Of a stretch of DNA of 60,123 bases, positions 1-58,571 are shown piece after piece. Source of the DNA: a virus (taxonomy: Duplodnaviria; Caudoviricetes). The notes below the pieces were generated by a model. That model had not been told where the DNA came from. It searched no databases and saw only the letters and a list, made by a program, of their open reading frames with translations. Positions within the stretch are counted from its first letter, which is position 1; each line of letters begins with the position of its first letter. The position numbers were made by a program, and so were the translations under genes. The DNA lies in IMG/VR virus record IMGVR_UViG_3300025853_000086, positions 1 to 60,123 of that record; one strand, given 5' to 3'.

Positions 1-28
1 ACTAGGCAGGCATTTTGTACTGGTTGGT

Positions 29-460
29 TTACTTGCTGGCTTGCGGTTGCACTACCAGCTTAACGTATGGTGTGCCCCACGTTGCGCTGCTAGGGCTATA
101 GCCTCCTTGTAGCATTGCCATTAGGCAAACGGGTTTTTTGCTGCTATGCCCTAGTGGTTTAGCGGCTGCTAGTATTGCTGCTAGGCTAGTGTTACCTTCC
201 ACCCCTTGCAGCAACCAATCCTGTATAGTTTGGCGTACGCCGCCTGCCTTGCCGTTATAGCCAAACGGCACAGGGCTGCTAGTGCCTGCCTGTACATTTG
301 CCAGCGGCACAACTTGCACATTGTGTAAGTTGCCGCCTGCTGCTGTGTTAACCCATGCCCACAGTTGCGCGTAAGTAATTTCCTTACCGCCTGTAAACGT
401 GGCAACGTTTACTGTTGCTGCTGCTGTTGTGTTTTTTGTTGCTGTTTTTGCTTTAGCCAT
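29..460 (-). CDS. Hypothetical protein, GA/TC-depleted paralog of 1647-2075
   Basis: 143-aa ORF; differs from the second copy only by synonymous changes and one codon indel; shares SPVPFGY, GGVRQTIQDW, PLGHSxKKPVCL and GGYSPSS motifs with the paralog. Confidence 0.93.
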   Translation of the reverse strand: MAKAKTATKNTTAAATVNVATFTGGKEITYAQLWAWVNTAAGGNLHNVQVVPLANVQAGTSSPVPFGYNGKAGGVRQTIQDWLLQGVEGNTSLAAILAAAKPLGHSSKKPVCLMAMLQGGYSPSSATWGTPYVKLVVQPQASK

Positions 461-718
461 TTTTATATACCTTTAGTTGTGTGTGTGTTTTTGTGGCCTT
501 GTTTGCTGACCACGGAGTAATAGTAGCATTTTAGTGAACTATTGCAACCGTTGTAGCGAACTATTTTTTTGAGGATTTTATAGCATATACAGACACCACC
601 TGTCGGTGTCTGTGGCTTTCTAACTTCTCCTCTGTTGAGATGGGAATGGGAATGGGAATGGTTTATCTTAAGGCAGCAGCCACCAGTAACGCGACTGCCG
701 TCAGTGCAAAGAAAATCC

Positions 719-880
719 CTAGGAGCGCCATGTCGCCATCAGCCCTCCGGCTACCATGAGTAGGCAACCCTGCATTGCAATCAAGCCTAGCCAGAACAAC
801 TCTTGAGCTTCAGCTGCTGAACAGGCAACGATCAACCCTGTTATGAACAGGACCATACCAATGTTGTTTATCAGTCTCAT
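719..880 (-). CDS. Small two-TM membrane protein
   Basis: Two hydrophobic stretches; ATG at 880 has SD GAGAAAGG; upstream promoter at 916-944. Confidence 0.7.
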   Translation of the reverse strand: MRLINNIGMVLFITGLIVACSAAEAQELFWLGLIAMQGCLLMVAGGLMATWRS

Positions 881-915
881 ACCTTTCTCCGTATGTAGTG
901 TTGGTGTGCAAGTGT

Positions 916-953
916 AGTATGCCAAGCCGACACTGGGTGAGCTAGTCTTGTTT
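916..953 (-). promoter_or_regulatory. Sigma70-like early promoter
   Basis: AAACAAGAC-TAGCTC-N17-CATACT; near-identical motif at 6653-6691. Confidence 0.65.
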
Positions 954-1076
954 ATTCAACAATACTCCATAGAGGATGATTGATAATAACACCGAGATTG
1001 ATTGATAGTGATAGGTAGGGGGGAAATCCTCCGGAATCATCAATACTCTTCGTTTCTCTGGAATGGGAATGGGAGA

Positions 1077-1095
1077 AAGGGGGACAAGCCCCCTT
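1077..1095 (-). terminator. Hairpin terminator
   Basis: AAGGGGG-N5-CCCCCTT stem right after the ORF 1098-1361 stop, followed by a pyrimidine run on the minus strand. Confidence 0.6.
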
Positions 1096-1097
1096 AC

Positions 1098-1361
1098 TTA
1101 CAGATTAGACAAGAAGTCAGTCAGGTCTTGTAGCTGCTTATCGTCACAAACAATAAACGCCCCGAGACAGTTGACTTTTAAATAGTCATCATTAGTGTTG
1201 GTTATTGTAACGTCAGTCTGGTGTGTATACCCAGTAACCGAGATTTGGGTTAAATCATCAACCATTACCAACATGGTGTTGTCAGTCTTGTCAACAAACA
1301 ACGGTTGTATACCCACTTGGTCAAGGGATTTTAATACAGCATTAGTGCAAGCAGTAAACAT
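1098..1361 (-). CDS. Hypothetical protein
   Basis: 87-aa ORF with CTCATAGAAAGGAG leader; conserved in the second repeat copy. Confidence 0.85.
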   Translation of the reverse strand: MFTACTNAVLKSLDQVGIQPLFVDKTDNTMLVMVDDLTQISVTGYTHQTDVTITNTNDDYLKVNCLGAFIVCDDKQLQDLTDFLSNL

Positions 1362-1588
1362 AATCAGCTCCTTTCTATGAGTTTTATGGTATTTGTTAAT
1401 TACTACAAAGCCAGTATGCCAATAGACTTTTTGTGAAACAACCCCCCCCAGAAAAAGAAAGATATTGATTACTTATGTATATGTATACATAAGTAAAAGT
1501 CATCCTCAATCCTCCTCCTCTCGGGAAAGGGAAGGGAGAGGATGGGAGGGGAATGGGAAGTCCTCAATATTCATCCTTTTCGCAAGTC

Positions 1589-1613
1589 AAAAAAGAGGGA
1601 GCCGAAGCTCCCT
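1589..1613 (-). terminator. Intrinsic terminator
   Basis: AGGGAGC-TTCG-GCTCCCT (cUUCGg loop) followed by CTTTTTT, downstream of 1647-2075. Confidence 0.9.
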
Positions 1614-1646
1614 AATCACACACGTACGACTCAAGGAGTGGTCAGG

Positions 1647-2075
1647 TTAACCCTGAACCACCAGTTTGACAAACGGTGTCCCCCAATACTTGCTAGACGG
1701 GGAGTAGCCACCGTGCATGAGCGCGTGGAGGCAGACCGGCTTTTTGCGCGAGTGCCCAAGCGGAGCGGCCTTATTGAGCGCAGTCTTAAGACTACGGTCA
1801 CCGTCCACACCGCGTAGCATCCAGTCCTGTATAGTTTGTCGTACGCCTCCAGCGCGACCACCATAACCGAACGGTACAGGTGACGTGCTAGCCAGATCCA
1901 CGTTATCCAGTGGAACAATCTTCACGTTGGCCTCGTTACCACCGGCATGCTCTTGGACAAACTTCCAGATGTCACCGTATGAAAGCTCTTCACCGGTGAG
2001 ACAGAGCTCAGCCACTTTTACCTCGGCCTTCGCGACTGGTGCTTTCTTTACTGCTTTCTTAGCTGATGTAGCCAT
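1647..2075 (-). CDS. Hypothetical protein, normal-composition paralog of 29-460
   Basis: 142-aa ORF, strong SD, own promoter and terminator, full-length similarity to 29-460. Confidence 0.93.
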   Translation of the reverse strand: MATSAKKAVKKAPVAKAEVKVAELCLTGEELSYGDIWKFVQEHAGGNEANVKIVPLDNVDLASTSPVPFGYGGRAGGVRQTIQDWMLRGVDGDRSLKTALNKAAPLGHSRKKPVCLHALMHGGYSPSSKYWGTPFVKLVVQG

Positions 2076-2136
2076 TTTCCTATCTCCTTTCTATGAGAAA
2101 TGATTGGTCCTACATAACCCCTTGGTTACGGTATTC

Positions 2137-2170
2137 ACTATACTCTCATTAGTTATCATTGCCAGTCTTT
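2137..2170 (-). promoter_or_regulatory. Sigma70-like promoter
   Basis: AAAGACT-GGCAA...TATAGT upstream of 1647-2075. Confidence 0.55.
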
Positions 2171-2344
2171 TTGCATCCTTCTTAATCGGTCAAGATTGAC
2201 GTCATCATCAATCTTCCTCGTATACACCCACCATCGTTCGTCATCAATCATCCTCTTTCTTCTTAGAATGGGACGGGATAGAAGATGAATGATGATGACA
2301 AACGAGGATAGAAGAAGAGTTGACCACGCACAACGCCTCACGCA

Positions 2345-2779
2345 TCACGGCTCATGCTCTTTCTTCCTCGCATGGGCGATAATAAAATCAAGGAGGGCGG
2401 TCCAATCATACGGCCTCCCCGTTTCCCAATCCGGGGTCAACGCCTCACGGTCCTTCGTCCCCTCAGCTAGCTCCATGGCTCTTTCTCCTCCAAATAATTT
2501 GAGGGAGGAGGAGGAAGGATGACCAACAAGGTTCCAGACACTGCCCCCTTGATTTGAATACTGTACCTGCCATGCGATTTGGTGCGGTCTCAGGTCGATC
2601 TTTCTTATGACTTTTAATTGACTGACTTTTAGTTCAATCCAAAAGGAAGTACCGTCCTTCACTCCGTGAACATCAGGTACTCCGGGAGTAGCCCAAGTCT
2701 CGAGGCGTGTCCAAAACACGCCCGAGGCTTTAGTCCCTTGTTTTAACTTACTCCATAACTGGGACTCAGGTTTAGACAT
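2345..2779 (-). CDS. PD-(D/E)xK nuclease, VRR-NUC/Holliday junction resolvase-like
   Basis: E..LW, GVPDV, FWIELK and LRPHQIAW motifs. Confidence 0.8.
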   Translation of the reverse strand: MSKPESQLWSKLKQGTKASGVFWTRLETWATPGVPDVHGVKDGTSFWIELKVSQLKVIRKIDLRPHQIAWQVQYSNQGGSVWNLVGHPSSSSLKLFGGERAMELAEGTKDREALTPDWETGRPYDWTALLDFIIAHARKKEHEP

Positions 2780-2966
2780 CCGCCCCTCCGTGGCCGACTA
2801 CCGCTTGCAGTTGCTCTTGACACGATTCACACGGGGTTTTATCCTCGTTTTCGATGTATTTCGCGTAGTTATTGCCGAGCATCGGCTTACCGCACAGGGT
2901 TTGTCCCTTACCCGCGATATTCCAGTGTTGCTGCCCAAGACGTTTTGTCCATTCATCAATCCGCAT
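2772..2966 (-). CDS. Small Cys/His-containing hypothetical protein
   Basis: 64-aa ORF coupled to neighbours; H..LCG..CxxC. Confidence 0.7.
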   Translation of the reverse strand: MRIDEWTKRLGQQHWNIAGKGQTLCGKPMLGNNYAKYIENEDKTPCESCQEQLQAVVGHGGADV

Positions 2967-3216
2967 AAAGCACCTCCATCAATTGGTGTGGTTGTGTTTC
3001 AAAAGTAACCCAGTCACCGCAGGCTACCGATTTATCACCTACGGTCACTGGTAGCGTCTTAGCGTATTGAATAAACCGACCTAAGCGCTCCTCCTCGAAC
3101 AGCTCATGCAACTTGTCATGCTGCTCGCAATAGCAGTACGCGACTGCCCACAGGGTACCCATCACAGGCATAAACGACACTTGGTCGTCACTTGCTATGT
3201 TAAATACCTCAATCAT
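2956..3216 (-). CDS. Hypothetical protein
   Basis: Start trimmed to MIEVFN, giving an ATGA overlap with the upstream stop. Confidence 0.65.
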   Translation of the reverse strand: MIEVFNIASDDQVSFMPVMGTLWAVAYCYCEQHDKLHELFEEERLGRFIQYAKTLPVTVGDKSVACGDWVTFETQPHQLMEVLYAD

Positions 3217-3467
3217 GACATATCCCCTAGCATGCCGTCGGCTATCCACTCTTCTGGGTGTTCGGACCATTGCTGCAAGAAGTCTGCTTGCCATGCCATG
3301 TCGGGGTCTACTACAGGCATATCACAGGGGTAGTCCCTATTGCCGTCTTCCATTAAGGCATTGCATCCTAGCTGTGCAAAGAGCTTGGCGCGATTCTTGT
3401 AATCGCCAAACTCGTGTAGGGTGTCATGCTCCCAAGGTTCTCCACAAAACTTACAATGTATATCCAT
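3213..3467 (-). CDS. Hypothetical protein with CxxC
   Basis: 84-aa ORF with CTCATAGAAAGGAG leader. Confidence 0.8.
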   Translation of the reverse strand: MDIHCKFCGEPWEHDTLHEFGDYKNRAKLFAQLGCNALMEDGNRDYPCDMPVVDPDMAWQADFLQQWSEHPEEWIADGMLGDMS

Positions 3468-3555
3468 GTCGCAACTCCTTTCTATGAGTTAGTGAGCGTA
3501 CCTACTTGGTACATTACAATGGTGCGCCACGACACCAACCCCGAGCAACTCTTGT

Positions 3556-4089
3556 TTAGTCTTCTTGCGTCGCTTCACCTTCGATCACTAGATTACCTTG
3601 CATAATCGCCTGTAGAGCAGGGAAGTCTTCTTGGAGTTGTTGTATTTCTTTAAGGACTTCCTCTTTGCTCATCTGGTCAATGCGCCCGTGCAAGATTTCT
3701 TTGCGATCTATGTACAATCCTGCTGCTTGGCCTCTAGACTTTTCCGCAGCGACAGCCGCAGCGAAATTGTTACCACTGAGGGCAGCATCACGGATCTCTG
3801 CTAGTTTTCTGACATGGCCTTCAAATGTGACTTCGTACTTGACGCCAAGCTCTTGTTTGATTTCTGCAATACGTTGATTGACCCTAGGGTTCAGCTTGAG
3901 CATTTGCGAAGCAATAGACGCAGCGGAGTTCTCACTGAATCCAGCACGGAGAGCGGCTTCTGTTTGGGTGACATCTTCGCAAGCAAAGATCATCGCAAAC
4001 TTTTCCTGCTTTGCAGTGAGATTCCTTACCTTGTCCGAGCGGACGGGCACATCCAACTTCTTTTTGTGAGTAACTTTTGGCAGAGCCAT
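3556..4089 (-). CDS. terS: Terminase small subunit
   Basis: LTAKQEKFA...TQTEAALRAGFSENSA N-terminal HTH typical of TerS. Confidence 0.8.
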   Translation of the reverse strand: MALPKVTHKKKLDVPVRSDKVRNLTAKQEKFAMIFACEDVTQTEAALRAGFSENSAASIASQMLKLNPRVNQRIAEIKQELGVKYEVTFEGHVRKLAEIRDAALSGNNFAAAVAAEKSRGQAAGLYIDRKEILHGRIDQMSKEEVLKEIQQLQEDFPALQAIMQGNLVIEGEATQED

Positions 4090-4112
4090 CGTATCTCCTA
4101 GACTAACTTACC

Positions 4113-4331
4113 GGACTTTACATAATAGGTCGAAAATCGCGAAGGACAAAAATGCATTTTATCACATTCCGTCGCCGCGCGAACACGAGTTTGATGAACA
4201 TATATTTTTCTATATTGGTCCATTTGGACATAACTCCTTGAATAACCAAGTATAGTGTGATATCGTATATTATAGAATGTTAAAAATCCATTTTACGCAT
4301 CTCGCGAATTTCGACCTATTATGTAAAGTCC
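4113..4331. repeat. Inverted-repeat-bounded element A
   Basis: 30-bp arms at 4113-4142 and 4302-4331 with one mismatch; core ACTTTACATAATAGGTCGAAAATCGCGA. Confidence 0.9.
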
Positions 4332-4370
4332 CCTGAACAGAGGTTATTGGTCAAAAATTGATCAACTTTT

Positions 4371-4465
4371 GAATTCTGTAAGACTTTTTTGAATTCTGTA
4401 AGACTTTTTGAATTCTGTAAGACTTTTTGAATTCTGTAAGACTTTTTGAATTCTGTAAGACTTTT
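4371..4465. repeat. Tandem array, 5 x 19 bp (GAATTCTGTAAGACTTTTT), iteron-like
   Basis: Copies start at 4371, 4391, 4410, 4429 and 4448; no spacers. Confidence 0.95.
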
Positions 4466-4581
4466 GCCATAATCCCCGCCCCTTACTCGACGCCCCTAGG
4501 CTGTTTGATAGTGCATGCCTAGGGGTAAGGCAGGGGTGGGGTTGTCCAAGGGCAGGTAGACAGTCTAGCGGCGGCTTGGGA

Positions 4582-5007
4582 TTATCCAAACAGTTTGTGC
4601 CATAAGGTAGGCCATAGTCCACGGTGGACAGGTTCTTCCTTCTTGTCGAACACGCCTTGGTCAACTGCCGTGGTGACGGTTGTTTTTTCTGCGGACGGCA
4701 CCGGATTAGGTGCCGCCATCCCTGCGCTAGTCACCGTGATGGTTACACTTTCCGTCTTGGTCTTGGTCTTAGGTTTTGCATCGGCCACCCCTGCCTCTTT
4801 AAGAGCCACATTAGTGATAGGCAACCCCCGCTCAATGTTTTCGTTTTTCAGCCGACGATACACCACATACTTGACTTGCTGCTGTGTCATTTTATACTTT
4901 GCAGCCAGTTGTTTGATTGTCATGCCTTGAGCTTTGTCCGCCGCAATTTGATAGATCATTGCGTCGTTCCATTTTTCGTTAAAGTGCCCATCCTCTTTCT
5001 TAGCCAT
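4582..5007 (-). CDS. Putative HTH DNA-binding protein
   Basis: GMTIKQLAAKYKMTQQQVKYVV is HTH-like; SD AGGAG. Confidence 0.65.
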   Translation of the reverse strand: MAKKEDGHFNEKWNDAMIYQIAADKAQGMTIKQLAAKYKMTQQQVKYVVYRRLKNENIERGLPITNVALKEAGVADAKPKTKTKTESVTITVTSAGMAAPNPVPSAEKTTVTTAVDQGVFDKKEEPVHRGLWPTLWHKLFG

Positions 5008-9267: not shown

Positions 9268-9417
9268 TTAACGGCGAGATGCGTTCTCATTGCTCTCGTT
9301 TGTTCTGTCCATTTCTTCTAGGATATCGATGAGCAGATACAACTCATGGAGCAAATTACCGAGGTGGTGGTCGTCTATGGTTTCGGTGTCTACTTCCACG
9401 GAAAAGTTAATCTTCAT
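9268..9417 (-). CDS. Small acidic protein (49 aa, not in the ORF track)
   Basis: Hand translation MKINFSVEVDTETIDD... Confidence 0.55.
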   Translation of the reverse strand: MKINFSVEVDTETIDDHHLGNLLHELYLLIDILEEMDRTNESNENASRR

Positions 9418-9949
9418 CTAGCATACCTATCAGCTGTAGTGCTGGAGCAAACCAAGGCTCGGCGTGGTACTTGGTCAAGTAATTGCCGCCACGCTTAAAC
9501 ACATCAAGAGCAAAGGTGTTGCCCATCTTATATAGGCGATGACAGTGCAGCATCAGCTCGAGTTTGTCGCAAGTATCGCAGATTCCGGTTTCTTCTTCGG
9601 ACAATGGGATGTTTATCCCTAACTCTTGTTCTACTGCTTGCTCTAGCGTAGCCATGCAATCAGCCAGTATGGGATGCCTCCATTTGGTAGTAGCGGGTAG
9701 GTCACCTAGTTCGCCCTCGGGTACATCGTGGTAGAGCATATGCAGTAAGCACTCTTTGCTTGTATCAGGCCAAAGTGTATGCAGTAGCACTGCTGCTCTC
9801 CAAGAATGGGCGGCGACGTCTTGGTGGTCAGCCAGTTCGGGGCGGGTATGGTAACGCTTGACATACCCCCCTTTGAGTTTACGATGCAGCACGGCTAGGG
9901 TAGCTACTCCATCATTGTTGTGTGTTTGTGTTTGAGTCCGCGTGTCCAT
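9407..9949 (-). CDS. HD-domain (YfbR-like) deoxynucleotide phosphohydrolase
   Basis: VKRYHT, VAAHSW, YHDVPE..GDLP and CDKLE motifs. Confidence 0.88.
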   Translation of the reverse strand: MDTRTQTQTHNNDGVATLAVLHRKLKGGYVKRYHTRPELADHQDVAAHSWRAAVLLHTLWPDTSKECLLHMLYHDVPEGELGDLPATTKWRHPILADCMATLEQAVEQELGINIPLSEEETGICDTCDKLELMLHCHRLYKMGNTFALDVFKRGGNYLTKYHAEPWFAPALQLIGMLDED

Positions 9950-11829
9950 GGCTTCTCCGTGAAGGTTTGTTTTGCTTCCCCCCAGTTTGGTCCAAATTCT
10001 GCATCAACTACGGAGGGAACTTCTAGTTGTGCGCAGGTCTCCATTATCTCGGCTATTTGTTTGGCTTGCTGCTCGCTGTGGACGGATACGTCTAACTCGT
10101 CGTGTACCTGTACCATTGGTATTATGCCTTCCTCGTAAAGGGCGACCATTGCAGCCTTGGTCTGGTCGGCTGCGCTACCTTGTATCAACTTGTTGAGAGC
10201 TTTGTAGGTAAATGCCCGTTTGATCCCAGGACCATGCTCTGCATAAGCATCTTGGTAAGTCATAGGTTTCCAACTACCGTAGCGGGTAGGTTCCCATTTG
10301 TCAAACCTACAGCGGCGTCCTAAAAGGGTTCTTATAACCCCCCGCTGACTTGCCCGCCTAATGCAGTGGTCGCTTAACTCTCGTACAAAAGGGACTTTGG
10401 CATGGTAAGTAGCAAACAATTCTTGGGCATCTTCGTATTCTAAGCCGAGGCTTGCGGCGAGCTTTTTTGTGCCCATGCCGTAGAACAGCCCAAGGTTGAT
10501 GTCCTTTGCTTGCTTGCGCGGTACGCCTACGATATCTGCCGCCAATTGGTGGAAGTCCGTCCGTGGGTCTGCTTGGTACTGCTGTGCAAAGTCTGCCGCG
10601 CCTCTAAAGCCCATCAACTTACTGTAATGCACCACTATGCGGGGTTCTTGGCTAGAGTAGTCGAAAGCGCCCCACAGACAGTCTTTTTCTGGTAGGAATA
10701 GGCTGCGTATAAGTGGTCCGAGTTCTGGGTGGCGAGCAGGAATCTGCTGCAAGTTAGGGTTGCTATAACTGAACCGCCCCGTGACAGTGCCGCCGTCGTC
10801 GCTGCGGAGGGGGTGTAGCTCGGCGTGGATTTTACCGTTTATCTCGTGCTTTAGTATGGCGTCTATAAAAGTACCACGCGCCTTTTGGTACTCCCGCGCT
10901 TGGACAATCATTTGCGCTACGCTGTGGTCATGGTTCACTAAGAACCCTTTTGTAAATGACGGCGCTTGGGTCTTTTCCGTTTTGGGGTACGGTAACCCTA
11001 ATTTGTCAAAGGCTTTGGCTACACTTTCCGCCGCCCAGATGTCCACTTCTACTCCGGTGATGCGTTTGACTTCTTTGACCAAAGCGGCCTCGCGTTTTAG
11101 TAAGTCTTGCTTAACGCGCTCAGCTTTGTCTAGGTCGACGTTTACGCCCTGCATCCGCATGGCAATGATGATAGGCGTGATGCGTAGCTCTAAGTCTACG
11201 ATGTCGCCTATATCTTCTTGTATTATTAGGGGTTCGAAATGGTTCCATAACCGCAAAGTAAGGGCGGCATCTTGTTCGGCGTAGGCTCCCACATGGGCAG
11301 CAGGGAGTTTGTACATTTCGGATTTTGGATTAACTCCAAAACTAGCCGCTGCTTCTCTAAGATGAACTTCGGATTTTCGGTCGGATAAGTAGTCCCTTCC
11401 AAGGGAATTAAGTGCATAGGAGAATCTGTTTTCGTCGAGCAAAGGTGCAATAACCATTGTGTCGATGATTCTTCCATGCACTTTGACACCCTCGCGGAGC
11501 AGCCACCCAACATCGTAAGGAGCGTTATGGAAAATGTAATTCCTATCCACCGAGACAACATCTTGTACCCACCGTAGTGTCATTGCTGGGTCAAAGTTTG
11601 GACCAAACTCATGCCTAATAGGAAAGTACCATTGATCGCCGTCCACGGCTACTGCTATGCCGATAATATGCCCGTCGCCTCGTGCCCATCCTGCCCCCAT
11701 AGTCATGAGGTTCGGGTCTTTGGTTTCTAAGTCTATTGCTACTTGTTTGGCAGAACTAAGGTCGGGGTAACCGTCGGGCATAACCCACTCAGTTGGTGGT
11801 TGGAACATTGGGATCTGCATTCCGGTCAT
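9904..11829 (-). CDS. DNA polymerase family A with 3'-5' exonuclease
   Basis: DLET, HNAPYD, TGRFS..NPNLQQIP, DYSSQEPR, K.INLG..YG and QVHDEL motifs; the start may be 11820. Confidence 0.97.
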   Translation of the reverse strand: MTGMQIPMFQPPTEWVMPDGYPDLSSAKQVAIDLETKDPNLMTMGAGWARGDGHIIGIAVAVDGDQWYFPIRHEFGPNFDPAMTLRWVQDVVSVDRNYIFHNAPYDVGWLLREGVKVHGRIIDTMVIAPLLDENRFSYALNSLGRDYLSDRKSEVHLREAAASFGVNPKSEMYKLPAAHVGAYAEQDAALTLRLWNHFEPLIIQEDIGDIVDLELRITPIIIAMRMQGVNVDLDKAERVKQDLLKREAALVKEVKRITGVEVDIWAAESVAKAFDKLGLPYPKTEKTQAPSFTKGFLVNHDHSVAQMIVQAREYQKARGTFIDAILKHEINGKIHAELHPLRSDDGGTVTGRFSYSNPNLQQIPARHPELGPLIRSLFLPEKDCLWGAFDYSSQEPRIVVHYSKLMGFRGAADFAQQYQADPRTDFHQLAADIVGVPRKQAKDINLGLFYGMGTKKLAASLGLEYEDAQELFATYHAKVPFVRELSDHCIRRASQRGVIRTLLGRRCRFDKWEPTRYGSWKPMTYQDAYAEHGPGIKRAFTYKALNKLIQGSAADQTKAAMVALYEEGIIPMVQVHDELDVSVHSEQQAKQIAEIMETCAQLEVPSVVDAEFGPNWGEAKQTFTEKPWTRGLKHKHTTMME

Positions 11830-11959
11830 CCTTTTTAATTTTCATGGGCTGCTTACAAGAACATATCGGCCACTTGTTTTTGAGTGACCGGTACGTCTTG
11901 GTTTTTTGCTCCTTGCCGCATTCACAAACAGCGATTACTTCGGTATCTAAACTGGTCAT
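11789..11959 (-). CDS. Small Cys-rich protein (56 aa, not in the ORF track)
   Basis: Hand translation MTSLDTEVIAVCECG...WPICSCKQPM; ATGA coupling. Confidence 0.6.
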   Translation of the reverse strand: MTSLDTEVIAVCECGKEQKTKTYRSLKNKWPICSCKQPMKIKKDDRNADPNVPTTN

Positions 11960-12288
11960 TTTTGTTTGGATACAAGCTCCGCTTCAACAAGGGTGAGATA
12001 ACGGCGCAGGTCGCGGATGTCGTCGATTACGCCTTCGTCTCTTTGGTCTTTAGTGCAAGCGGCAAAGATGTCCCACCCTTGCTCGGACACTTGCTTTTCT
12101 AGCCTGTCCCACTTACGGGCTAGCATCATAAAAGCACCAATGCCTCCGCGCTTTTTCCAACTGTCGCCGTAGCTTTGCTCAGCTTGGTGGAGTTTGTACA
12201 CGTCCATGTCGGCTACTTGTTGGCACGTCTCCATGAAGCTCGTATAAGTTGCTTTGTCTGGTACTGATGCGTAGTAATTGTTGTCCAT
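11956..12288 (-). CDS. Nucleotide-modification-associated protein (Nmad1/MazG-like)
   Basis: YGDSWKKRG...RKWDRL...D.I.DL..Y pattern; adjacent to the TS homolog. Confidence 0.72.
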   Translation of the reverse strand: MDNNYYASVPDKATYTSFMETCQQVADMDVYKLHQAEQSYGDSWKKRGGIGAFMMLARKWDRLEKQVSEQGWDIFAACTKDQRDEGVIDDIRDLRRYLTLVEAELVSKQK

Positions 12289-12289
12289 G

Positions 12290-13270
12290 TTACAGTCTCC
12301 TCTCAAACCATTCGGTACAGGCTTTACGCCATGCTTTGTCTTCTATGCACATTGCTGTGAAAAACGCCCCTTCCTTATCCTTACCTTTCCACTGTTGCCA
12401 CGCTTGATACATAGGCACGGCGGTCTCGGCTATATACCTGTTTCTGTACTCATGGTCGCTTGACCCGTCATGCATGAACAACTCTAACTCCTGATCGAAG
12501 GTTGTTGGGTCGTCAACTAAATTAGGTGGTTGGTAGAGCACAATAGAGTCGTCTACGAGTTCGTAGTTGCTGTACTGTGGTTGCATACCTTGCAGCTTGT
12601 CTAATACCTCTACATAGGCGTGTAGATTGTTTGAAAACTGCACATAGTGCCCCACATGTAAACCAAGCATCTGCGCCATGTATTCCAACAACACCGACAT
12701 ATGTACGGCATTAGCACCGTATGCACCCCAGATCATATCGTTGCTGCGGTTTACCACAGTCATGTTAAGTGTTTCGTCCCGGACTTGGAAAAAAATCTGG
12801 GTGTTGCAGGGGTAGTCTTTGCCATCGTTGGTGGTTACTAGGTCATGGTTAGCATCCCACATACTAACCACTGTCCGGCGGTCGTTAGGGTAAGTAGTCA
12901 AGCGATGCATAGCTAACTTGAGTTGGTCTTTACCAAACCAATTGCGCCATCGGTAACCGTAAGCTCCGTGGAAAGAAACACCATCGTCGCTGTAGGTGTT
13001 TATCCTACCGTTGAACTGGTTGATCCATTTGACGTCGTTACGTCCGGCGAGCATCCAAAAGGCTTCCATCAAATGGAAGAAAGGGTTGGCGTCCCGCTCT
13101 GGGTAGAACAAGGCTCGTTCTCTGGAATGCGTGTAAGTAGTAACTACCGGAGTAGGGAACTCTAACACGGGACCATTGCGGGTCTGTACTTGTACTCCCA
13201 TTGCTTCGATCCCTTGCTTGGCAATATACAAAGCCTCGCTTACGTTTCTTGCTCGTATAGTGTGTGTCAT
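12290..13270 (-). CDS. Thymidylate synthase homolog, likely dUMP hydroxymethylase
   Basis: Catalytic DYPCN, NRSNDMIWGAYGAN (Asn at the dUMP specificity position) and NLHAY; start trimmed to MTHTIR. Confidence 0.88.
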   Translation of the reverse strand: MTHTIRARNVSEALYIAKQGIEAMGVQVQTRNGPVLEFPTPVVTTYTHSRERALFYPERDANPFFHLMEAFWMLAGRNDVKWINQFNGRINTYSDDGVSFHGAYGYRWRNWFGKDQLKLAMHRLTTYPNDRRTVVSMWDANHDLVTTNDGKDYPCNTQIFFQVRDETLNMTVVNRSNDMIWGAYGANAVHMSVLLEYMAQMLGLHVGHYVQFSNNLHAYVEVLDKLQGMQPQYSNYELVDDSIVLYQPPNLVDDPTTFDQELELFMHDGSSDHEYRNRYIAETAVPMYQAWQQWKGKDKEGAFFTAMCIEDKAWRKACTEWFERRL

Positions 13271-14550
13271 TCTTGTACTCCCATTGCTGCTTGCCAAATA
13301 CCAAAAAATTCTAACTTCTTATGGCACTTTTCCTGTAATTGTTTTGTTTCCTTTCCTGTCGCACAGCCTTGTGTGCTGTTGGCTAGGTCTATGTACTCTT
13401 GGGCTACGGCGGTATCGGCAAAGCGTTGGACAGCCGTGACATTGTTGTTAGCAATGGTTGTCCATTGGTTGCTATCGGTTAAGCCATTGTCGATTATGTC
13501 GGCAAACTCTTGGGGGGTTGCTGCGGCAGGTACCTCTATGTAGTTGACGCCCGCCGTGAACACCTTGCTGTTGTTCATACCTAGGTCGGTTGCCACAGGC
13601 ACCGCTCCGCAAATCATGGCTTCCATAGTTGTACGATTAAAATGCGCACCAAAGGCCGAATACTTTTTAGACCAACTGGGGTCTATCTGTAGCTTGCTGT
13701 CCCGCAGGAGGTGGTAGTGCATATCAGTAGGGATGGTGCCTACATACTCCATGCCGTGACGCAGGGCTTTGTCCCAGATACGGTCACCGGTTGCGTCAAA
13801 ATACTTAGGTTTGCATTTTTCTTGGCTAGTCATGTAGCGGTACTCTATCCCTGCGCCGCCTACTCGCTTAGGTTCTTTTGTTTTTAGGTGTGGTATGGCA
13901 CGGATTAACGTATCTACCCGCTTCCATGCTTTGAATACCTGCACTGCACAAAATCCGGCACGGGTTTCAAACTTCGACATAGGCACCGCATTAGTTAGGT
14001 CAAAGGGGTTTACAATCATTTTGCGGGGTATAGCAATACACTCCGCACTGTGATACGCAGACTCGTGTACGCAAACCATCGCGTGAAAATGATGCCCAAC
14101 CCAAGCCAGATGCGGGTACAGTTCGGGCAGGTTACCATCGTGTATGATGGCTATGTTTTTAGTCCCGCTGTTGTACAAGTCTAGCCATTCGTTAACGGCG
14201 GCGTTTTCTTTGTTGACGGTAGGCACAGGGATATGCCACAGGACGAAGTCGTACCCGCTGCATTTGTTTTTGAACTTAGCTCGCTCGTTAGGGTCTAGGT
14301 AAGCCACTTTGTTCTCGTTAGGCCACCACCATCCCCTAGCCTGATGGAAGAACAATCCTGTGCCGTGCTTGCGGTACTCTGCTAACACCTCTGGTTTTGG
14401 TCCACGGGTAACACCAAACTTCTTTTTAGGGCACAGCTTGACAAAGTCTACAGTGTGGCCTAGCTTGACAAAACCTGCTGCTAGGTTCTCCGCGTGGTTG
14501 ATAATACCGCCATAATCTTGGATGTCGAACAGGGTCATGAGTATTTTCAT
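13267..14550 (-). CDS. GT-B fold glycosyltransferase, putative DNA base glycosyltransferase
   Basis: N-terminal MKIL...YGG...LA..F...GHTV; C-terminal EAMICGAVPVATD. Confidence 0.85.
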   Translation of the reverse strand: MKILMTLFDIQDYGGIINHAENLAAGFVKLGHTVDFVKLCPKKKFGVTRGPKPEVLAEYRKHGTGLFFHQARGWWWPNENKVAYLDPNERAKFKNKCSGYDFVLWHIPVPTVNKENAAVNEWLDLYNSGTKNIAIIHDGNLPELYPHLAWVGHHFHAMVCVHESAYHSAECIAIPRKMIVNPFDLTNAVPMSKFETRAGFCAVQVFKAWKRVDTLIRAIPHLKTKEPKRVGGAGIEYRYMTSQEKCKPKYFDATGDRIWDKALRHGMEYVGTIPTDMHYHLLRDSKLQIDPSWSKKYSAFGAHFNRTTMEAMICGAVPVATDLGMNNSKVFTAGVNYIEVPAAATPQEFADIIDNGLTDSNQWTTIANNNVTAVQRFADTAVAQEYIDLANSTQGCATGKETKQLQEKCHKKLEFFGIWQAAMGVQE

Positions 14551-15452
14551 TAGTTGACAGCTCCTATAACAGGTGTCTTTGTTGTTGCTTGCTCCACACG
14601 GAACAGGCTCCGTGGTGTGCCCTGTTTTAGGCGCACTCTTTCATACTTGTCCCACTCGCACAGGCTATGCTCTATGGTGCGCATGTCTACATCTAAAACA
14701 GGAACGCATGAATCTTTTAAATGACGTCTTGCTACACACAGTAGATCAACCATCTCGTCGTTGGCTTGCTTTGAGTTAAGAGATTTTTTAAGGTCACGTT
14801 GGTGGATACGGTTCAATCCGCGTATTGCTCCAGGACCGGCGTTTGCCCATGTGAACTTGTCATAAGGCCAATGTAAGACAGGCGTGTAGCTGAGGTCGGT
14901 AACTACCTCATAAGCCATAAAACCCCCGCCTCCCCAACCTTTATATTGTCCTAACATTTTGTGCGTCAGTTCTAGGCTTCGGTTTTCTTGTATACTTTTG
15001 GTAATCTTGGTGCGGTCTTCCCAGATAGGGGTAAGGAATTTGTCGACTACTACCTCAGACTTTGGTAACTTGAGTCCTTGGTTAGTGATTATATAAGCTC
15101 CGGTGAAGGTTCTTTGCTTGCGAGCAATGCGTTGCTCTATCAGGCGCTTGGTTTCTTCTGGGTTCCAGTCGGTTACCCAACCGTGCTCTTCTGCAAACTC
15201 TGTAGTGCCAACCATGCGAAACAAACAAGTGTTGAACACTATCTGCTCGGCAGGTCTTCGGTCTTGTAGGTTAGTCCAGTTTTTGCGCATCCAAACGGTT
15301 ACCCTGTCGTTCTCGCGAAAAGGGTTAGTGAACTTGTAGTTGGCTAAGATAGGATCAGCTGTCCAAGGCGGGGGGTTACCCGCCGCCCTGTTCAGGTAGA
15401 TTTGGTGCCGCTCTTTTATCCAACCGAAAAAACTTTCTATAGCTTCGGTCAT
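14550..15452 (-). CDS. aGPT-Pplase1 / 5-hmdU DNA kinase helical-domain protein
   Basis: ERHQIY, PPWT.DPIL..YKFTN..RE.DR.T, FTGAYII, F.AYEVVTDL, GPGA.RGL and EH.LCE.DKY.R motifs. Confidence 0.88.
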   Translation of the reverse strand: MTEAIESFFGWIKERHQIYLNRAAGNPPPWTADPILANYKFTNPFRENDRVTVWMRKNWTNLQDRRPAEQIVFNTCLFRMVGTTEFAEEHGWVTDWNPEETKRLIEQRIARKQRTFTGAYIITNQGLKLPKSEVVVDKFLTPIWEDRTKITKSIQENRSLELTHKMLGQYKGWGGGGFMAYEVVTDLSYTPVLHWPYDKFTWANAGPGAIRGLNRIHQRDLKKSLNSKQANDEMVDLLCVARRHLKDSCVPVLDVDMRTIEHSLCEWDKYERVRLKQGTPRSLFRVEQATTKTPVIGAVN

Positions 15453-15462
15453 GTTAGGTTCC

Positions 15463-16008
15463 TTATTTTAGTTCAATGGCTCCGTGGTCGATGGCGATCT
15501 GTATATCGGTGCCACCTCCGGGAGAAGGCTGCAAAGCGCGTAGGAGAGTCATTGCTTCGCCCACGGTTGGGCTATTCATAACTACGACCATGTTGCGGTG
15601 CCGATTAGTACCCTGCCGGATAGGTGGCTCGGCTAGCAGTGGGACAATAGAAAGTTTTGGGTCAAAGCGTTTACGGGTTTCAACTTTCTTTTCTACGGGT
15701 TGGGTTACTTGTTCGGGTTGGGTCATTGATTCCTCCACTGGGGGTGTCCAAACAACAGCTTTAGTATCTACAAAATCGTGCAGGGTTTCAACTAATTGTT
15801 GTTGGTTTACAAAAGACATGGGTTTGCCGATAGCTTGCCACACCGAATGCAATCTTTCAAAAGAGTAGTGTTTAAGCAAGTTATCGGGGTTGTTGCCTCG
15901 ATACACAATAGACTTGTGGTTTATGGCAGGACATTGGTTGGCTATCTGCAGATTCTCAAAAGCAAGCAGTTGATAGCCTGTGGCGTTTTCACAAATTGCG
16001 TAGAACAT
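15463..16008 (-). CDS. Hypothetical protein, first gene of the modification operon
   Basis: Start trimmed to MFYAIC after ATAGAAAGGG. Confidence 0.78.
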   Translation of the reverse strand: MFYAICENATGYQLLAFENLQIANQCPAINHKSIVYRGNNPDNLLKHYSFERLHSVWQAIGKPMSFVNQQQLVETLHDFVDTKAVVWTPPVEESMTQPEQVTQPVEKKVETRKRFDPKLSIVPLLAEPPIRQGTNRHRNMVVVMNSPTVGEAMTLLRALQPSPGGGTDIQIAIDHGAIELK

Positions 16009-16030
16009 GGGATCCCTTTCTATGGAATAA

Positions 16031-16069
16031 GGCAAGGTTCATTATAGTAATGAACCTTGCCCCGAACAA
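16031..16069 (-). promoter_or_regulatory. Sigma70 promoter overlapped by a perfect 14-bp inverted repeat
   Basis: TTGTTC-N17-TATAAT; GGCAAGGTTCATTA-tag-TAATGAACCTTGCC. Confidence 0.8.
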
Positions 16070-16080
16070 GAAGTATTTTA

Positions 16081-17109
16081 TCAAGCTACTTTAGCGTACT
16101 CCAGTGCTTTAGTCAACGCTTGGCGTTTGGTATTTGCACCGCTACCGAACCACGCACTGTGCAGAGCGTTGCCTTGCTCGTGGGAACGCTTCTGGTGATC
16201 CACTATGTAGGTCACCGCATTGAGTGCGCCCCACCATGTTCCCTTAGCAGATTCTAACCCTGCTCCGGGACTAAGGTCAACTGCGTCGCGTACCATTTGT
16301 GCTGTGTGTTTGAACTCATCGCGCAGCGGCGGCAGCTTGCTAATGTCAGCAGCTTTGCCACGCTCTATCAGCGCATTGGGTTGGAATAGCTCCGCAATGA
16401 AGTTATCTAACTGGTCGCCTTTAGCCTTTTTCTTAGCTAAGAACTGGGACTGCTCTTGGAACGCTTGCATTTGGTTACCGGACAAGCCTAGGGCTTCCTC
16501 GGCTGCGCGTTGTATTTCCTCGTCGAACATTTGTAGATGCAACACACGGAACTTGTTGCCTTGCTGTCCTAGTGCCATAGTCAGGGTATTGTTACACACC
16601 ACTCGTATGGGCGTGAACATAATGGTCATCGCTTTGCCTACTTGGTGGCTGTTGTTGAGCAGGAGGTAGCCTTCGACTTCGTCACCCCCTGCAAGGGTGA
16701 ATCCTTTGGCAATCTTAGCCAAGCCCCAAACATCCTTGCCTCCTTTTAAGCTACCCGCCGTTTCCATAGTCATGTTACCTGCTTCGGTAAACTTTTTGAA
16801 GAACGACATAACTTCTGCATTCTGGAACGGCACATAACTTTCACCACAGTTGGACAGGACTTTGTTGTCGCTGTCGCGGACTAGGAAGTGTTGGTCTGGT
16901 GCGCGGATAAAACTAGCCTCGCCAGTTGGGTCGACTATATTCCAACAGTCGGGCTTGTCTACAGTGTACGCCGGACGCTTGCTAACTGTCCAGTCTATTT
17001 CTGCTGCGATAAGCATTTCCTGTGGGGTCATTGTGGAATCGACTGCGTTACCTAAACCATGCCAAGGGACTTGGTTAGCGTAGGCCATTGTTTCTACTTG
17101 GTGTGCCAT
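16081..17109 (-). CDS. DUF932 family (TIGR03299-like) phage/plasmid protein
   Basis: MAHQVETMAY..PWHGLG, ETAGSL.GG and TPIRVVCNNTL motifs. Confidence 0.9.
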   Translation of the reverse strand: MAHQVETMAYANQVPWHGLGNAVDSTMTPQEMLIAAEIDWTVSKRPAYTVDKPDCWNIVDPTGEASFIRAPDQHFLVRDSDNKVLSNCGESYVPFQNAEVMSFFKKFTEAGNMTMETAGSLKGGKDVWGLAKIAKGFTLAGGDEVEGYLLLNNSHQVGKAMTIMFTPIRVVCNNTLTMALGQQGNKFRVLHLQMFDEEIQRAAEEALGLSGNQMQAFQEQSQFLAKKKAKGDQLDNFIAELFQPNALIERGKAADISKLPPLRDEFKHTAQMVRDAVDLSPGAGLESAKGTWWGALNAVTYIVDHQKRSHEQGNALHSAWFGSGANTKRQALTKALEYAKVA

Positions 17110-23372: not shown

Positions 23373-23410
23373 TACCGTACCCTAATAGAAAGGTGGGTGA
23401 GGAAAAAACA

Positions 23411-24850
23411 ATGCGATACAGATTCAAGTACAAGCCGTACCAACATCAGCTTGATGCTTTGGAAAAGGCATGGGATAAACCCTTTTTTGCGTTCTTCATG
23501 GATATGGGCACCGGAAAGTCTAAGGTGCTTATAGATAATATGTCTATGCTGTATGACAAAGGCCGTATTACCGGAGCGTTAATTGTTGCACCCAAAGGGG
23601 TGTACAAAAACTGGGAGCGTAAAGAGCTGCCCACACACCTGCCCGACCATGTAAAAGTGAACATCGTGGCGTGGTCACCAGAAAAAACAAAAAAGAAAGA
23701 AAAAGAGCTAGCTACGTTGTTCGAGGTTAGCGACGACTTGCAAATCTTCGTTATGAACGTGGAAGCCTTTTCTAGCAAGCGGGGGGTGGATATAGCAGGT
23801 AAGTTTTTGTTTTGTCATAAAGCTCTTTTAGCCGTGGACGAAAGCACCACCATAAAATCTAAAGACGCAGGTCGCACAAAAAACCTGTTGAAACTAGCAC
23901 GGAAGTCTCCCTACCGCAGGATCCTAACCGGATCTCCGGTTACCAAGTCTCCTTTGGATTTGTTTACCCAGTGCGAATTTTTAGAGGACAGCGCCCTAGG
24001 CCACGGCAGTTTTTGGACATTCCAAAGCCGGTACGCCAAATTGGTTCGCACTACGATGGGTGCCCACTCGTTTAACAAAATAGTAGGTTATCAAAATTTA
24101 GACGAGCTTAACGGCATAATAGAACCGTTTAGTTTTAGAGTGCGCAAAGAAGATTGCTTAGACTTACCCGACAAGGTATACACCAAGCGCACCGTAGAGC
24201 TAACTAAAGAGCAAGCCATCCTTTACGAACAAATGAAACGCAACGCCCTAGCCATTATCCAAGGCGAGGGTTTGGTTACTGCAAGTACCGTCTTAACCCA
24301 GATGTTGCGCTTGCAACAAGTGTGTTCTGGTTTTGCAAAACTAGAAGACGACCGCGTGGTCACCGTGCCAAGTAACAAACTTACCGAGCTGATGTCTGCC
24401 ATAGAGGAAATCGATGGCAAGGTTATTATCTGGGGTAATTTTACCCACGACCTGCACCTCATAGGCGACGCGTTGAAAAAAGTCTACGGCACAGAAAGTG
24501 TTGCCCTGTTTTACGGTGAAACACCCACCGAAGAGCGCCAAGACATTGTGGAAAACTTCCAAGATCCTGCTAACCCTCTGCGCTTTTTTGTTGGTCAACC
24601 ACGCACCGGCGGTTATGGCTTAACGCTTACCGAGGCCAATACTGTTATCTACTACTCCAACGGCTACGACCTAGAGGTGCGCCTCCAATCCGAAGACCGT
24701 GCCCACCGTATCGGCCAGACCAACAAAGTAACCTACATAGATTTAGTGGTGGAAAACACCCTAGACGAAAAAGTCCTGCAAGCCCTGCGTAACAAGATAG
24801 ATATCAGTACGCAGGTCATGGCAGAAGACTACAAGCAGTGGATAGTTTAG
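23411..24850 (+). CDS. SNF2-family helicase, the only convincing plus-strand gene
   Basis: MDMGTGKS, DES, LTGSP and QSEDRAHRIGQ motifs. Confidence 0.95.
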   Translation: MRYRFKYKPYQHQLDALEKAWDKPFFAFFMDMGTGKSKVLIDNMSMLYDKGRITGALIVAPKGVYKNWERKELPTHLPDHVKVNIVAWSPEKTKKKEKELATLFEVSDDLQIFVMNVEAFSSKRGVDIAGKFLFCHKALLAVDESTTIKSKDAGRTKNLLKLARKSPYRRILTGSPVTKSPLDLFTQCEFLEDSALGHGSFWTFQSRYAKLVRTTMGAHSFNKIVGYQNLDELNGIIEPFSFRVRKEDCLDLPDKVYTKRTVELTKEQAILYEQMKRNALAIIQGEGLVTASTVLTQMLRLQQVCSGFAKLEDDRVVTVPSNKLTELMSAIEEIDGKVIIWGNFTHDLHLIGDALKKVYGTESVALFYGETPTEERQDIVENFQDPANPLRFFVGQPRTGGYGLTLTEANTVIYYSNGYDLEVRLQSEDRAHRIGQTNKVTYIDLVVENTLDEKVLQALRNKIDISTQVMAEDYKQWIV

Positions 24851-46689: not shown

Positions 46690-46901
46690 TAGCCTAAACC
46701 TTTGAGTAGCTGCAAAAGTGTGTCGCTATTAACTAAACCACCAAAAACTACCGCACCAACTAAAACCCACTTAGCTTGAAACAAGGCTTTTTTGACATCC
46801 CGCATGTCGGTATGCAACTCTTCCACTTTGCTGTAAATATGCTTTTGAGTTGTACGCATTTCCGTGAACTCAATTTCAAGCTCGTGTACTGTTTTAGCCA
46901 T
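46689..46901 (-). CDS. Coiled-coil protein with one TM helix
   Basis: Start trimmed to MAKTVH. Confidence 0.7.
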   Translation of the reverse strand: MAKTVHELEIEFTEMRTTQKHIYSKVEELHTDMRDVKKALFQAKWVLVGAVVFGGLVNSDTLLQLLKGLG

Positions 46902-46912
46902 CATTCCTCCAC

Positions 46913-47197
46913 TTACCACGCTTTGCATGACCAATACCTTGCCGAAAATTTATCTTTGGCGGTATCGCAATTGTGCCTAGCGCGGAAGTTAGACCTACGT
47001 CCGGGAATGTTCTTTTTTATCGTCATGTTAGGGTCGCCAAAACGGACTAACTTGACCTCATCACCTTTTTTAGCCAACACCGCTGACTTTTTTGGGCCAT
47101 TGGGTGTGCGTTTAGGCTTGTTGTATCCGGCAAATGTCTCCCCTCGGTAGGTTAGCCTACCGGAAGGGGTTCTTTTTACGTTCTTTGTACTAGCCAT
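46913..47197 (-). CDS. Conserved basic phage protein
   Basis: KLVRFGDPNM, F.ARH.C and ARYWSCKAW motifs. Confidence 0.8.
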   Translation of the reverse strand: MASTKNVKRTPSGRLTYRGETFAGYNKPKRTPNGPKKSAVLAKKGDEVKLVRFGDPNMTIKKNIPGRRSNFRARHNCDTAKDKFSARYWSCKAW

Positions 47198-58291: not shown

Positions 58292-58571
58292 AGGGCAGTG
58301 GCTCTTGGCTGAATGTTCAATGCGAATAATACACCATATATCGAAAATTTTTCTAGCACAATGAACCTACCCCCTCTTTTCTTGTTTAGGGGGGTGGGGA
58401 GCAGGGCTTTTGGTCGAGTAAAGTTCACTAATGATATAATGTTGTTGGTCCATCGAAGATTCGGGCAAAACATGGTTAGCCTAGGGCCAACCATAAGAGT
58501 GTCGTCTCTCAGGGGGGGTAGGGGGGGTAGGGGTGGCTTGGTGTTTTGTACCAAACGGTTTTTTAACGCGC

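Follow-up and report, generated by a model that had tools for sequence, protein, structure and literature searches.

GA/TC-dense intergenic islands of an HTVC023P-type phage record as probable parts of terminator/promoter linkers in a variable cassette array

The viral record IMGVR_UViG_3300025853_000086 of IMG/VR coincides with the window analysed here (the whole stretch of 60,123 bp) and encodes TerS, TerL, a portal protein, a DNA polymerase, a primase and a helicase. All open reading frames (ORFs) of at least 100 aa lie on the minus strand except three (23393-24850, encoding an SNF2-type helicase; 46776-47150; 58313-58648). The nearest named relatives of its TerL are the Pelagibacter phages HTVC027P and HTVC023P and the phages 023Pt_psg01 and DSL-LC04, with identities of 58-63%, and the window is the record of an HTVC023P-type phage with thymidine-hypermodification genes. 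Phages of this type are widespread in aquatic viromes, as stated in the available text of PMC9599517. A megablast search of positions 1-4200 against named phages gave no match. The region from terS to terL contains an array of small genes, among them the paralogues p1 and p2, and the spacers of this array include four blocks dense in the complementary dinucleotides GA and TC, here called islands 1 to 4 (Table 1). The islands are probably the middle parts of repeated non-coding linkers, each combining a terminator and a promoter, in an array of gene cassettes that varies between strains.

A first-pass annotation of the sequence had described the islands as packed with GA and TC, and recounting bore this out. 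The two dinucleotides together occur 9 times in the 44 nt of island 1, 24 times in the 112 nt of island 2, 20 times in the 81 nt of island 3 and 36 times in the 156 nt of island 4, which gives densities of 20-25 per 100 nt where the genome averages 9.9. Windows of the same length reach these counts in fractions of 0.018, 0.0024, 0.0005 and 0.0002 of cases for islands 1 to 4, respectively, which places the islands in the top 0.02-1.8%. The 15 other intergenic stretches of the window, among them all those of at least 36 nt, have 4-14 GA+TC per 100 nt, apart from one stretch of 20 nt at 20. Counted in 80-nt windows, the genome peaks at 22 in island 4, island 3 reaches 20 and island 2 reaches 18, and the earlier estimate of about 19 for positions 1501-1580 is exactly 19. 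The word GAATGGGA, said to be shared by the islands, is enriched, having 12 matches, all on the plus strand, against 1.19 expected, a number that 0 of 100 shuffles reach. Ten of the 12 belong to the islands (six) or to their right-end copies (four), and two lie elsewhere (8748 and 22032). The tandem hexamers at 640-661 and 1060-1074 are present as well. A second word pair, CATCAAT/CCTCAAT, does occur in islands 2, 3 and 4 as reported, but genome-wide it is not above chance (CATCAAT, 7 against 5.8 expected; YCTCAAT, 7 against 11.2).

Every island sits between a stop codon and the next start region and, on the plus strand, consists of a TC-rich stretch followed by a GA-rich one, with a third segment in islands 2 and 3. 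Read on the coding strand, each contains one to three copies of the box TCCCATTC or tandem CCCATT, and then a purine run; TC-rich words of type TCATCAATCATCCTC and their inverse GAGGATGATTGAT also occur in the islands, and the repeat families D1-D4 and D9 are found among the linkers of the window. The labels 'early' and 'monocistronic', which had been attached to the units between the islands, rest on predicted signals. Short minus-strand ORFs overlap islands 2, 3 and 4 (942-1043, 1396-1509 and 2156-2341), but that the islands encode small peptides is scarcely credible: the small neighbouring ORFs that were tested had no matching family, the repeats change in copy number by 5-6 nt, and coding is excluded by a 10-nt indel relative to the related locus L009, which breaks the frame in island 4, together with start codons that are unconserved among relatives. 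The islands are read as non-coding.

When the DNA folds of the islands were compared with those of 200 shuffles, islands 4, 3 and 1 beat all of them (z -3.1, -3.9 and -3.4), while island 2 folded no better than the shuffles (z -1.1); island 4 contains an imperfect inverted repeat with arms at 2234-2257 and 2282-2305. Both canonical G-quadruplex (G4) motifs of the window lie in this region (1523-1557 on the plus strand of island 3, and 58512-58533), as does the genome's longest tract made up of purines alone (20 nt, in island 3). These features would agree with islands acting through non-B DNA, be it G4/i-motif, purine/pyrimidine triplex or cruciform. Such a role is nevertheless quite improbable, as the G4 motif occurs in one of the four islands and the long purine tract in one, island 2 shows no special folding, L009 has uncompensated changes in the arms of the island-4 hairpin, and relatives conserve specific words and not composition alone. 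Covariation in this hairpin, looked for by comparison with L009, was not seen. As general explanations, both the canonical G4 (four G-runs of at least 3, loops of 1-7 nt), for which only island 3 qualifies, and the triplex (H-DNA) tract, which measures 20 nt in island 3 and at most 14 nt in the others, were rejected; the triplex alternative raised in the first-pass annotation fits one island at most. An Rfam search of positions 1-4600 gave two matches, which at E 0.48 and 0.61 fall well short of the gathering score.

Table 1. Features of the array region and other loci of the window discussed in the text
Feature	Position	Strand	Basis or remark
Gene p1, 143 aa, last unit before the spacer leading to terL	29-460	-	ORF
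Inferred host-type promoter of p1: TTGCAA, 16 nt, TGCTACTAT (extended -10)	520-547	-	read from sequence
10-bp hairpin, island 1 to p1 promoter	589-613	-	DNA fold, region z -3.4, 0/200 shuffles as good
Island 1; sense strand (CCCATT)x3, then purine run	618-661	-	
Small membrane-protein cassette	719-925	-	likely start ATG 880, giving 53 aa
Island 2; sense strand TCCCATTCCCATTCC box, purine run, C6, TC-array	965-1076	-	
Terminator-like hairpin GGGGGCTTGTCCCCC of 87-aa gene, island-2 box directly after	1077-1095	-	DNA fold
87-aa cassette gene	1098-1361	-	ORF; missing from a population variant
Perfect AT-rich inverted repeat, 13-nt arms, 2-nt loop, after island 3 on coding strand	1469-1496		
Island 3; sense-strand G-free C-rich tract with TCCCATTC, flanked by ATTGAGGA repeats	1500-1580	-	
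Predicted intrinsic terminator of p2: 7-bp stem, then CTTTTTT	1596-1613	-	scan; homologous hairpin follows p2 in relatives
Gene p2, 142 aa, ordinary GA/TC content	1647-2075	-	ORF
Promoter-like site of p2: CTGGCA, 17 nt, TATAGT	2137-2165	-	consensus scan, 9/12 matches
Island 4; sense strand TC-array, TCCCATTC box, GA-array	2170-2325	-	
TerS	3556-4089		
HD 5'-deoxynucleotidase	9407-9949		Pfam
Thymidylate-synthase-like protein	12290-13297		Pfam
GT1 glycosyltransferase	13267-14550		Pfam
5-hmdU DNA kinase (PF18723)	14550-15452		Pfam, E 1.6e-52
TerL	56828-58291		
Island 1, second copy, right-end overlap	59187-59230	-	
Island 2, second copy	59534-59645	-	5/112 differences
Extra 61-aa ORF cassette, right copy only	59666-59856	-	

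Relatives were taken from a p2 search of IMG/VR, with the best 80 of 92 related places used; all of them belong to one clade, so the counts are not independent. Both paralogues were placed in 68 of the 80 loci, with p2 before p1. Downstream of p2 the same order of elements recurs: a terminator comes first, then two boxes separated by about 12 purine-rich nt, the first of them a TCCCATTCC-TGAGGA box, and after these an AT-rich inverted repeat and TC-rich words. This order is kept down to 68% protein identity. Genes with the conserved leader TCGTAGAAAGGAG are preceded by GA-rich words, then by an A-rich stretch, and then by a promoter composed of AAAGACTTGnnA, about 17 nt and TGnTAYTCT. The motif search across islands and orthologous regions finds a linker architecture that recurs among related loci and is conserved across the clade. 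Two of its words are strongly oriented, the box TCCCATTC with 125 sense against 9 antisense copies (a sense copy being present in 60 of 80 loci) and the leader with 72 sense and 0 antisense copies in 55 of 80 loci.

The core TCCCATTC-n-GAGGA is conserved among the relatives, where neighbouring boxes are 25-29 nt apart, with 28 nt as the spacing of 14 among 22 distinct pairs. Of the 71 distinct contexts of the box, 26 have its start 5-9 nt past a T-run, in the relatives the T-run of the terminator. A perfect inverted repeat with arms of 9-16 nt is found in 38 of 55 distinct p2-downstream regions, against arms of about 5 nt on average in shuffled regions, and has 35 different arm sequences; the hairpin is conserved while its sequence varies. 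In the 114 distinct units that bear the leader, positions being counted from its motif, TC is most frequent at -275 to -200 and GA at -175 to -100, with a GA chain in 68 units and a TC chain in 66, compared with 4 and 7 in the downstream coding stretch. The exact box octamer is less general: five complete relatives have 16 sense and 6 antisense copies, and it is not clade-wide, since G002-G004 account for 15 sense and 0 antisense copies and G005 and G008 for 1 sense and 6 antisense. Octamer copies away from p2 are mostly inside open frames. The named phages 023Pt_psg01 and DSL-LC04 also have small genes near terS and terL, in DSL-LC04 between both and on the same strand. Both phages were examined and are without boxes, and GA/TC arrays were not seen in the DSL-LC04 spacers, to which the array check was limited.

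A second conserved site with TCCCATTC boxes and purine runs was found about 5.6 kb upstream of p2 in G003 (L182, G003:C1:53402-53632), with similar boxes in G002 and G004 (L171 and L173). Each of the three is located at a gene end or close to one and follows a conserved ...TWKKR...PPF... coding stretch.

The fixed box spacing, the strand bias of the box and the conserved TCCCATTC-n-GAGGA core might also be explained if boxes and arrays were sites for a phage protein that regulates or insulates early promoters, the candidates being p1, p2, a helix-turn-helix protein (4582-5007) and terS. The two paralogues, 63% identical over their aligned part, occur only with boxes: the exact 15-mer TCCCATTCCTGAGGA, present in 82 IMG/VR stretches (about the chance number by a rough estimate), stands in canonical context in 16 loci, all with p1/p2, and in 0 of the 66 others, where its contexts are unrelated and mostly coding. 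Both proteins have lysine-rich tails, and in the AF2 model of p2 (pLDDT 86, pTM 0.78) a disordered basic N-terminal tail of residues 1-18 extends from a confident fold without known relative. This explanation is, however, rather unlikely. Arrays that keep just the dinucleotide while their spacers drift are unusual for protein sites, the palindrome sequence varies among close relatives with constant flanks, and no DNA-binding fold or family was found for p1 or p2 in Pfam, PHROGs, PDB, BFVD or Atlas. In particular, Pfam and PHROGs assigned no family to p1, to p2 or to the 87-aa gene, no named phage matched p1 by tblastn, and for p2 neither a PDB profile search nor PDB and BFVD fold searches with the model produced a match at E <= 0.001. 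The Atlas matches of p2 are viral hypothetical proteins only, with DUF3489 at 0.76 as a lead only. The p1/p2 family was seen here only in uncultured viruses, and its invariant residues include H108, S109, C115 and Y124.

Small genes are gained and lost at the linkers. In a population variant, position 1059 is joined to 1589 with 11 letters between, which removes the 87-aa gene and island 3 and puts a box immediately after the p2 terminator; the joint has a depth of 33 against 148-216 in its flanks in DNA run X1, and is also found in library X16. Contig breaks of run X1 coincide with linker borders (581-610, 1085-1096, 1444-1447 and 2222-2224). In the right-end copy of the region, the extra 61-aa ORF is set into the terminator and bounded by the 12-nt direct repeat CAAGCCCCCTTA (59654 and 59857), a duplication of the 3' half of the terminator; the corresponding hairpin at 1077-1095 is this insertion site and also a contig-break site in run X1. 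The ribosome site of the 61-aa ORF appears to be provided by the former terminator's G-run. The related locus L007, whose p2 is 99% identical, carries three further genes between p2 and p1, bounded by three extra linker copies that match, at 83-93% identity, positions 1100-1001 of the window joined to 1469-1371. Endpoints of indels and replacements between close relatives fall in linkers, as seen in the joint, the contig breaks, the insertion and the maps of L007 and L008. The p2-to-p1 distance ranges from 260 to 2124 nt in the 68 loci (median 465), and the commonest state is one linker with no cassette. It is the products of recombination at linkers that are seen here, and not the event itself.

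The two ends of the window overlap, positions 571-1096 matching 59140-59665 (97%) and 1085-1351 matching 59857-60123 (99%); by alignment, 1-1094 corresponds to 58587-59665. The first-pass annotation had taken this overlap for a terminal repeat, which is not demonstrated. Because the copies are only 97-99% alike and the right-end one carries an extra insertion of about 190 bp, where a true terminal repeat would match exactly, and because a 9296-nt contig of run X1 extends beyond position 1 of the window, the overlap is read as an imperfect assembly wrap-around, running once round a circular or permuted map into a second strain. It had also been claimed that the islands are better conserved between the copies than the synonymous sites of gene 1. 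The numbers are right, with 0 of 44 positions differing in island 1 and 5 of 112 in island 2, while gene p1 has 17 substitutions, 16 of them at third codon positions, and one 3-nt (one-codon) indel. A special constraint on the islands does not follow, however, since the stretch between them (662-964, a gene and spacers) differs at only 6 of 303 positions; the p1 promoter stretch 461-560 is just 62% alike, and the pattern is that of a mosaic of strain variants. The sequencing runs used here, X1 and X16 included, are contigs, so transcript ends and molecule ends lie outside their reach.

What the data show is how the linkers are built, that this build is conserved within the clade, that the box favours one strand, and that cassettes appear and disappear at linker borders; the best-supported reading is that the islands are the middle parts of repeated terminator/promoter linkers. 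Such linkers would join small genes read by host RNA polymerase. On the coding strand, a full linker begins with a predicted intrinsic terminator, followed by one to three TCCCATTC boxes, each with a GAGGA-type purine run. It continues with a TC-dinucleotide array with 3-4 nt steps and a mirror GA array, preceded in the main linker, the one after p2, by an AT-rich hairpin of varying sequence. It ends with an A-rich stretch, a predicted sigma-70-type promoter that has an extended -10, a hairpin in the leader and a ribosome site that is conserved. Each linker would thus end one transcript and start the next, insulating the units, and, being repeated, could serve as a crossover point for the shuffling of cassettes. 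The density of GA and TC would then be a property of the boxes and arrays, whose reader may be an enzyme, a protein or the polymerase. That a stem-loop terminator and an early-type promoter share one intergenic unit is a prediction, in which the terminator and the promoter of p2 (1596-1613 and 2137-2165) come from the scan and other hairpins and promoters were read from the sequence, the DNA folds and the relatives. The putative p1 promoter is below the threshold of the consensus scan, and the same layout is found upstream of p2 in relatives. An identical leader CTCATAGAAAGGAG, to which the word TCGTAGAAAGGAG of the relatives is related, precedes three genes of the window (1368-1381, 2084-2097 and 3475-3484).

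Several points weigh against this reading. The promoters and terminators are predictions, and the consensus scan of positions 1-4500 found 7 promoter-like and 4 terminator-like sites against 6.4 and 3.9 in shuffles, recovering, of the signals of the units, no more than the promoter and the terminator of p2. The box of island 4 is not preceded by a terminator. Both kinds of array occur in 43 of the 114 leader-bearing units, so arrays are not universal; a plain terminator/promoter linker needs no TC and GA arrays of 100-150 nt, and the selective conservation of GA/TC columns described below points to a further function outside the linker explanation. The relatives come from a single clade, as noted above, and the RNA-library data are contigs, which are not able to show transcript ends. 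Their cover extends to p2 and the 87-aa gene and, in X16, to islands 1, 2 and 4, but contigs are no evidence of transcription or of gaps in it, so nothing is drawn from cover or from its lack.

Linkers of a comparable kind are known from T4-like myoviruses, where the promoter-early stem-loop (PeSL) is repeated between small ORFs without assigned function and the indels of close relatives end there, as described in the available parts of PMC4122927 and PMC2839356. PeSLs are composite terminator/promoter motifs that mediate indels in variable regions, according to the accessible text of PMC4122927. The linkers of the window resemble them in being repeated around small ORFs and in having indel endpoints inside, but differ in the phage lineage, which is HTVC023P-type, in a length of several hundred nt, and in the clade-specific TCCCATTC-GAGGA boxes, the variable hairpin and the TC/GA arrays, none of which is mentioned for PeSLs in the same part of PMC4122927. 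By this analogy the linkers may work like PeSLs; as lineage and motifs differ, they do not belong to that family.

Arrays of small genes near a genome end, with strong host-type promoters and terminators, are also characteristic of the host-takeover module of Bacillus phage SPO1, whose DNA contains hydroxymethyluracil (hmU), and of the pre-early region of T5, in which repeat-rich non-coding DNA has been proposed as an injection stop signal. The window is similar in having small genes near its end with predicted promoters and terminators, but its end overlap is not a proven terminal repeat. If correct, the terminator/promoter linker reading would explain how this lineage swaps small early genes that probably act on the host, and the linkers would be a ready marker for finding such cassettes.

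The function of the arrays may be connected with the modification of thymidine. A hypermodification cluster spans 9407-17109 and, besides the four enzymes listed in Table 1, includes a DNA polymerase, a 190-aa protein without assigned function and DUF932; the candidates for making hmU and for transferring a sugar to it were identified by Pfam. Hypermodification clusters have already been described in some HTVC023P-type clades, as the available text of PMC9599517 shows. Here a search of 10 clade records gave the 5-hmdU DNA kinase in all 10, and the two named relatives 023Pt_psg01 and DSL-LC04 have neither the kinase nor boxes.

GA/TC is the least frequent complementary dinucleotide pair of the window (odds 0.69 and 0.86), and the two strands are nearly devoid of it over 1-507 (p1 and its terminator) and 58510-59139 (also the promoter), with 3 TC left in the 630 nt of the latter; the longest run free of GA and TC is 274 nt, against at most 59 nt outside the two p1 zones. 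The avoidance noticed in gene 1 by the first-pass annotation was confirmed and extended, as GA/TC is purged from p1 of the window (4 TC, 0 GA) and from 31 of the 65 p1 sequences examined, in which GA+TC does not exceed 1.7 per 100 nt, the median for p2 being 12.3 (the 65 are not dereplicated, and two are the copies of the window). Some versions of p1 contain zero Asp or Glu, and three of its sequences are without GA but have TC on the coding strand.

In the linkers the dinucleotide itself is the conserved unit, judging from aligned columns. Chains of at least 5 GA with steps of at most 5 nt number 370, of which 161 are distinct, and have a commonest step of 3 nt, while the base between successive GAs varies (T 225, G 101, A 72, C 53). 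In the aligned orthologous GA-array of 11 related loci, conservation extends to 475 of 494 cells (96%) in columns where the reference has GA and to 421 of 522 (81%) in other columns. The box region gives 303 of 330 cells (92%) for GA/TC columns and 263 of 382 (69%) for the rest; these figures come from mutually related sequences and are indicative only.

If the 5-hmdU DNA kinase of this clade begins hypermodification at thymidines in TC context, boxes and arrays could have been selected for TC density, first on one strand and then on the other; patches of bulky bases after terminators and before promoters would then hinder RNA polymerase or other translocases, or mark promoters. This is possible, if not the explanation we favour, and it is compatible with the linker reading, to which it would supply the missing function of the arrays. 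The hypermodification genes of the clade, the kinase-free and box-free state of 023Pt_psg01 and DSL-LC04, the scarcity of GA/TC in the window with its near-absence in the p1 zones, the conservation of GA and GA/TC columns with a drifting spacer base, and the frequent position of the first box 5-9 nt beyond a T-run all agree with it. [quoted passage not shown] On the other hand, the TC context of this clade is deduced from avoidance and from those other phages, where TG counts too, and TG is not avoided in the window. CC columns of the box region are kept equally well (95 of 99), so that a sequence-specific reader fits too; the co-occurrence of kinase and boxes comes from a single clade; and as intrinsic terminators are already there, the roadblock may be redundant. 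The first-pass idea of modification-dense roadblocks is partly supported. Its premises stood, namely the pathway genes, the purge of GA/TC, the column conservation and the place of the first box after a T-run, and it missed the role of the islands in linkers and cassettes.

The islands may be where thymine modification is densest. More tentatively, the phage may write a map of modification into its sequence, with a p1 zone (gene, promoter and terminator) free of TC on both strands, in some relatives to the point of a p1 protein devoid of Asp and Glu, with neighbouring linkers packed with TC, and with dense patches acting as barriers or marks similar to base J at the borders of transcription units; the bare p1 zone would be DNA that needs to stay unmodified, and the packing with TC would affect first the coding and then the template strand. 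Base J (glucosyl-hydroxymethyluracil) marks transcription termination sites in kinetoplastids. The likeness lies in a presumed hmU-derived modified thymine, a predicted hmU-pathway kinase and glycosyltransferase, and candidate patches at the ends of transcription units, while the differences are that the window has a thymidylate-synthase-like protein and a DNA kinase in place of the JBP dioxygenase, and that its modification is predicted from genes. Modification-free or modification-dense zones written into a genome do not appear in the available text of PMC6449724 and PMC9599517, and the words 'intergenic' and 'promoter' have zero occurrences in that of PMC9599517.

From a limited literature search, we know of no earlier phage case in which hypermodification-dense or hypermodification-free zones are laid out by dinucleotide content. 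If such a map exists, it becomes possible to test directly which sequence rule a 5-hmdU DNA kinase follows and how hypermodified thymine affects transcription.

The main linker after p2 was also considered as a replication origin or packaging (pac) site, which would be made up of two direct repeats, a readily melting AT-rich palindrome and repeat arrays on either side. It lies in the region between terS and terL, and two boxes at fixed spacing stand beside an AT-rich perfect inverted repeat in the 38 of 55 distinct regions already mentioned; the relatives of TerL include phages regarded as headful packagers. Such a function is improbable, because the islands are multiple, their number changing between near-identical strains, and a more classical array is present upstream of terS; no initiator gene was found. 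The GC skew of the window has no turning point. The array upstream of terS consists of the 19-nt unit TTTTGAATTCTGTAAGACT in 5.2 tandem copies with 98% matches (4367-4465), lies in a 490-nt spacer just upstream of the gene, and is a candidate iteron or terminase-binding array.

At the other end of the cassette array, the spacer between p1 and terL (58292-58613) contains coding-strand C6-7 tracts, which on the plus strand read as AGGGGGGGT in 2.6 copies. The C-tracts form the G4 motif at 58512-58533, and after them come TGAGAGAC, a hairpin and additional blocks; relatives conserve the tracts and the hairpin as well as the word AAGTTTTGGACAAATCTTCGAG, and the spacer may be a late promoter or packaging signal. 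Away from the array, a 75-nt tandem repeat of 2.2-2.5 copies with up to 100% matches (39335-39520) lies within a 353-aa ORF (39026-40087).

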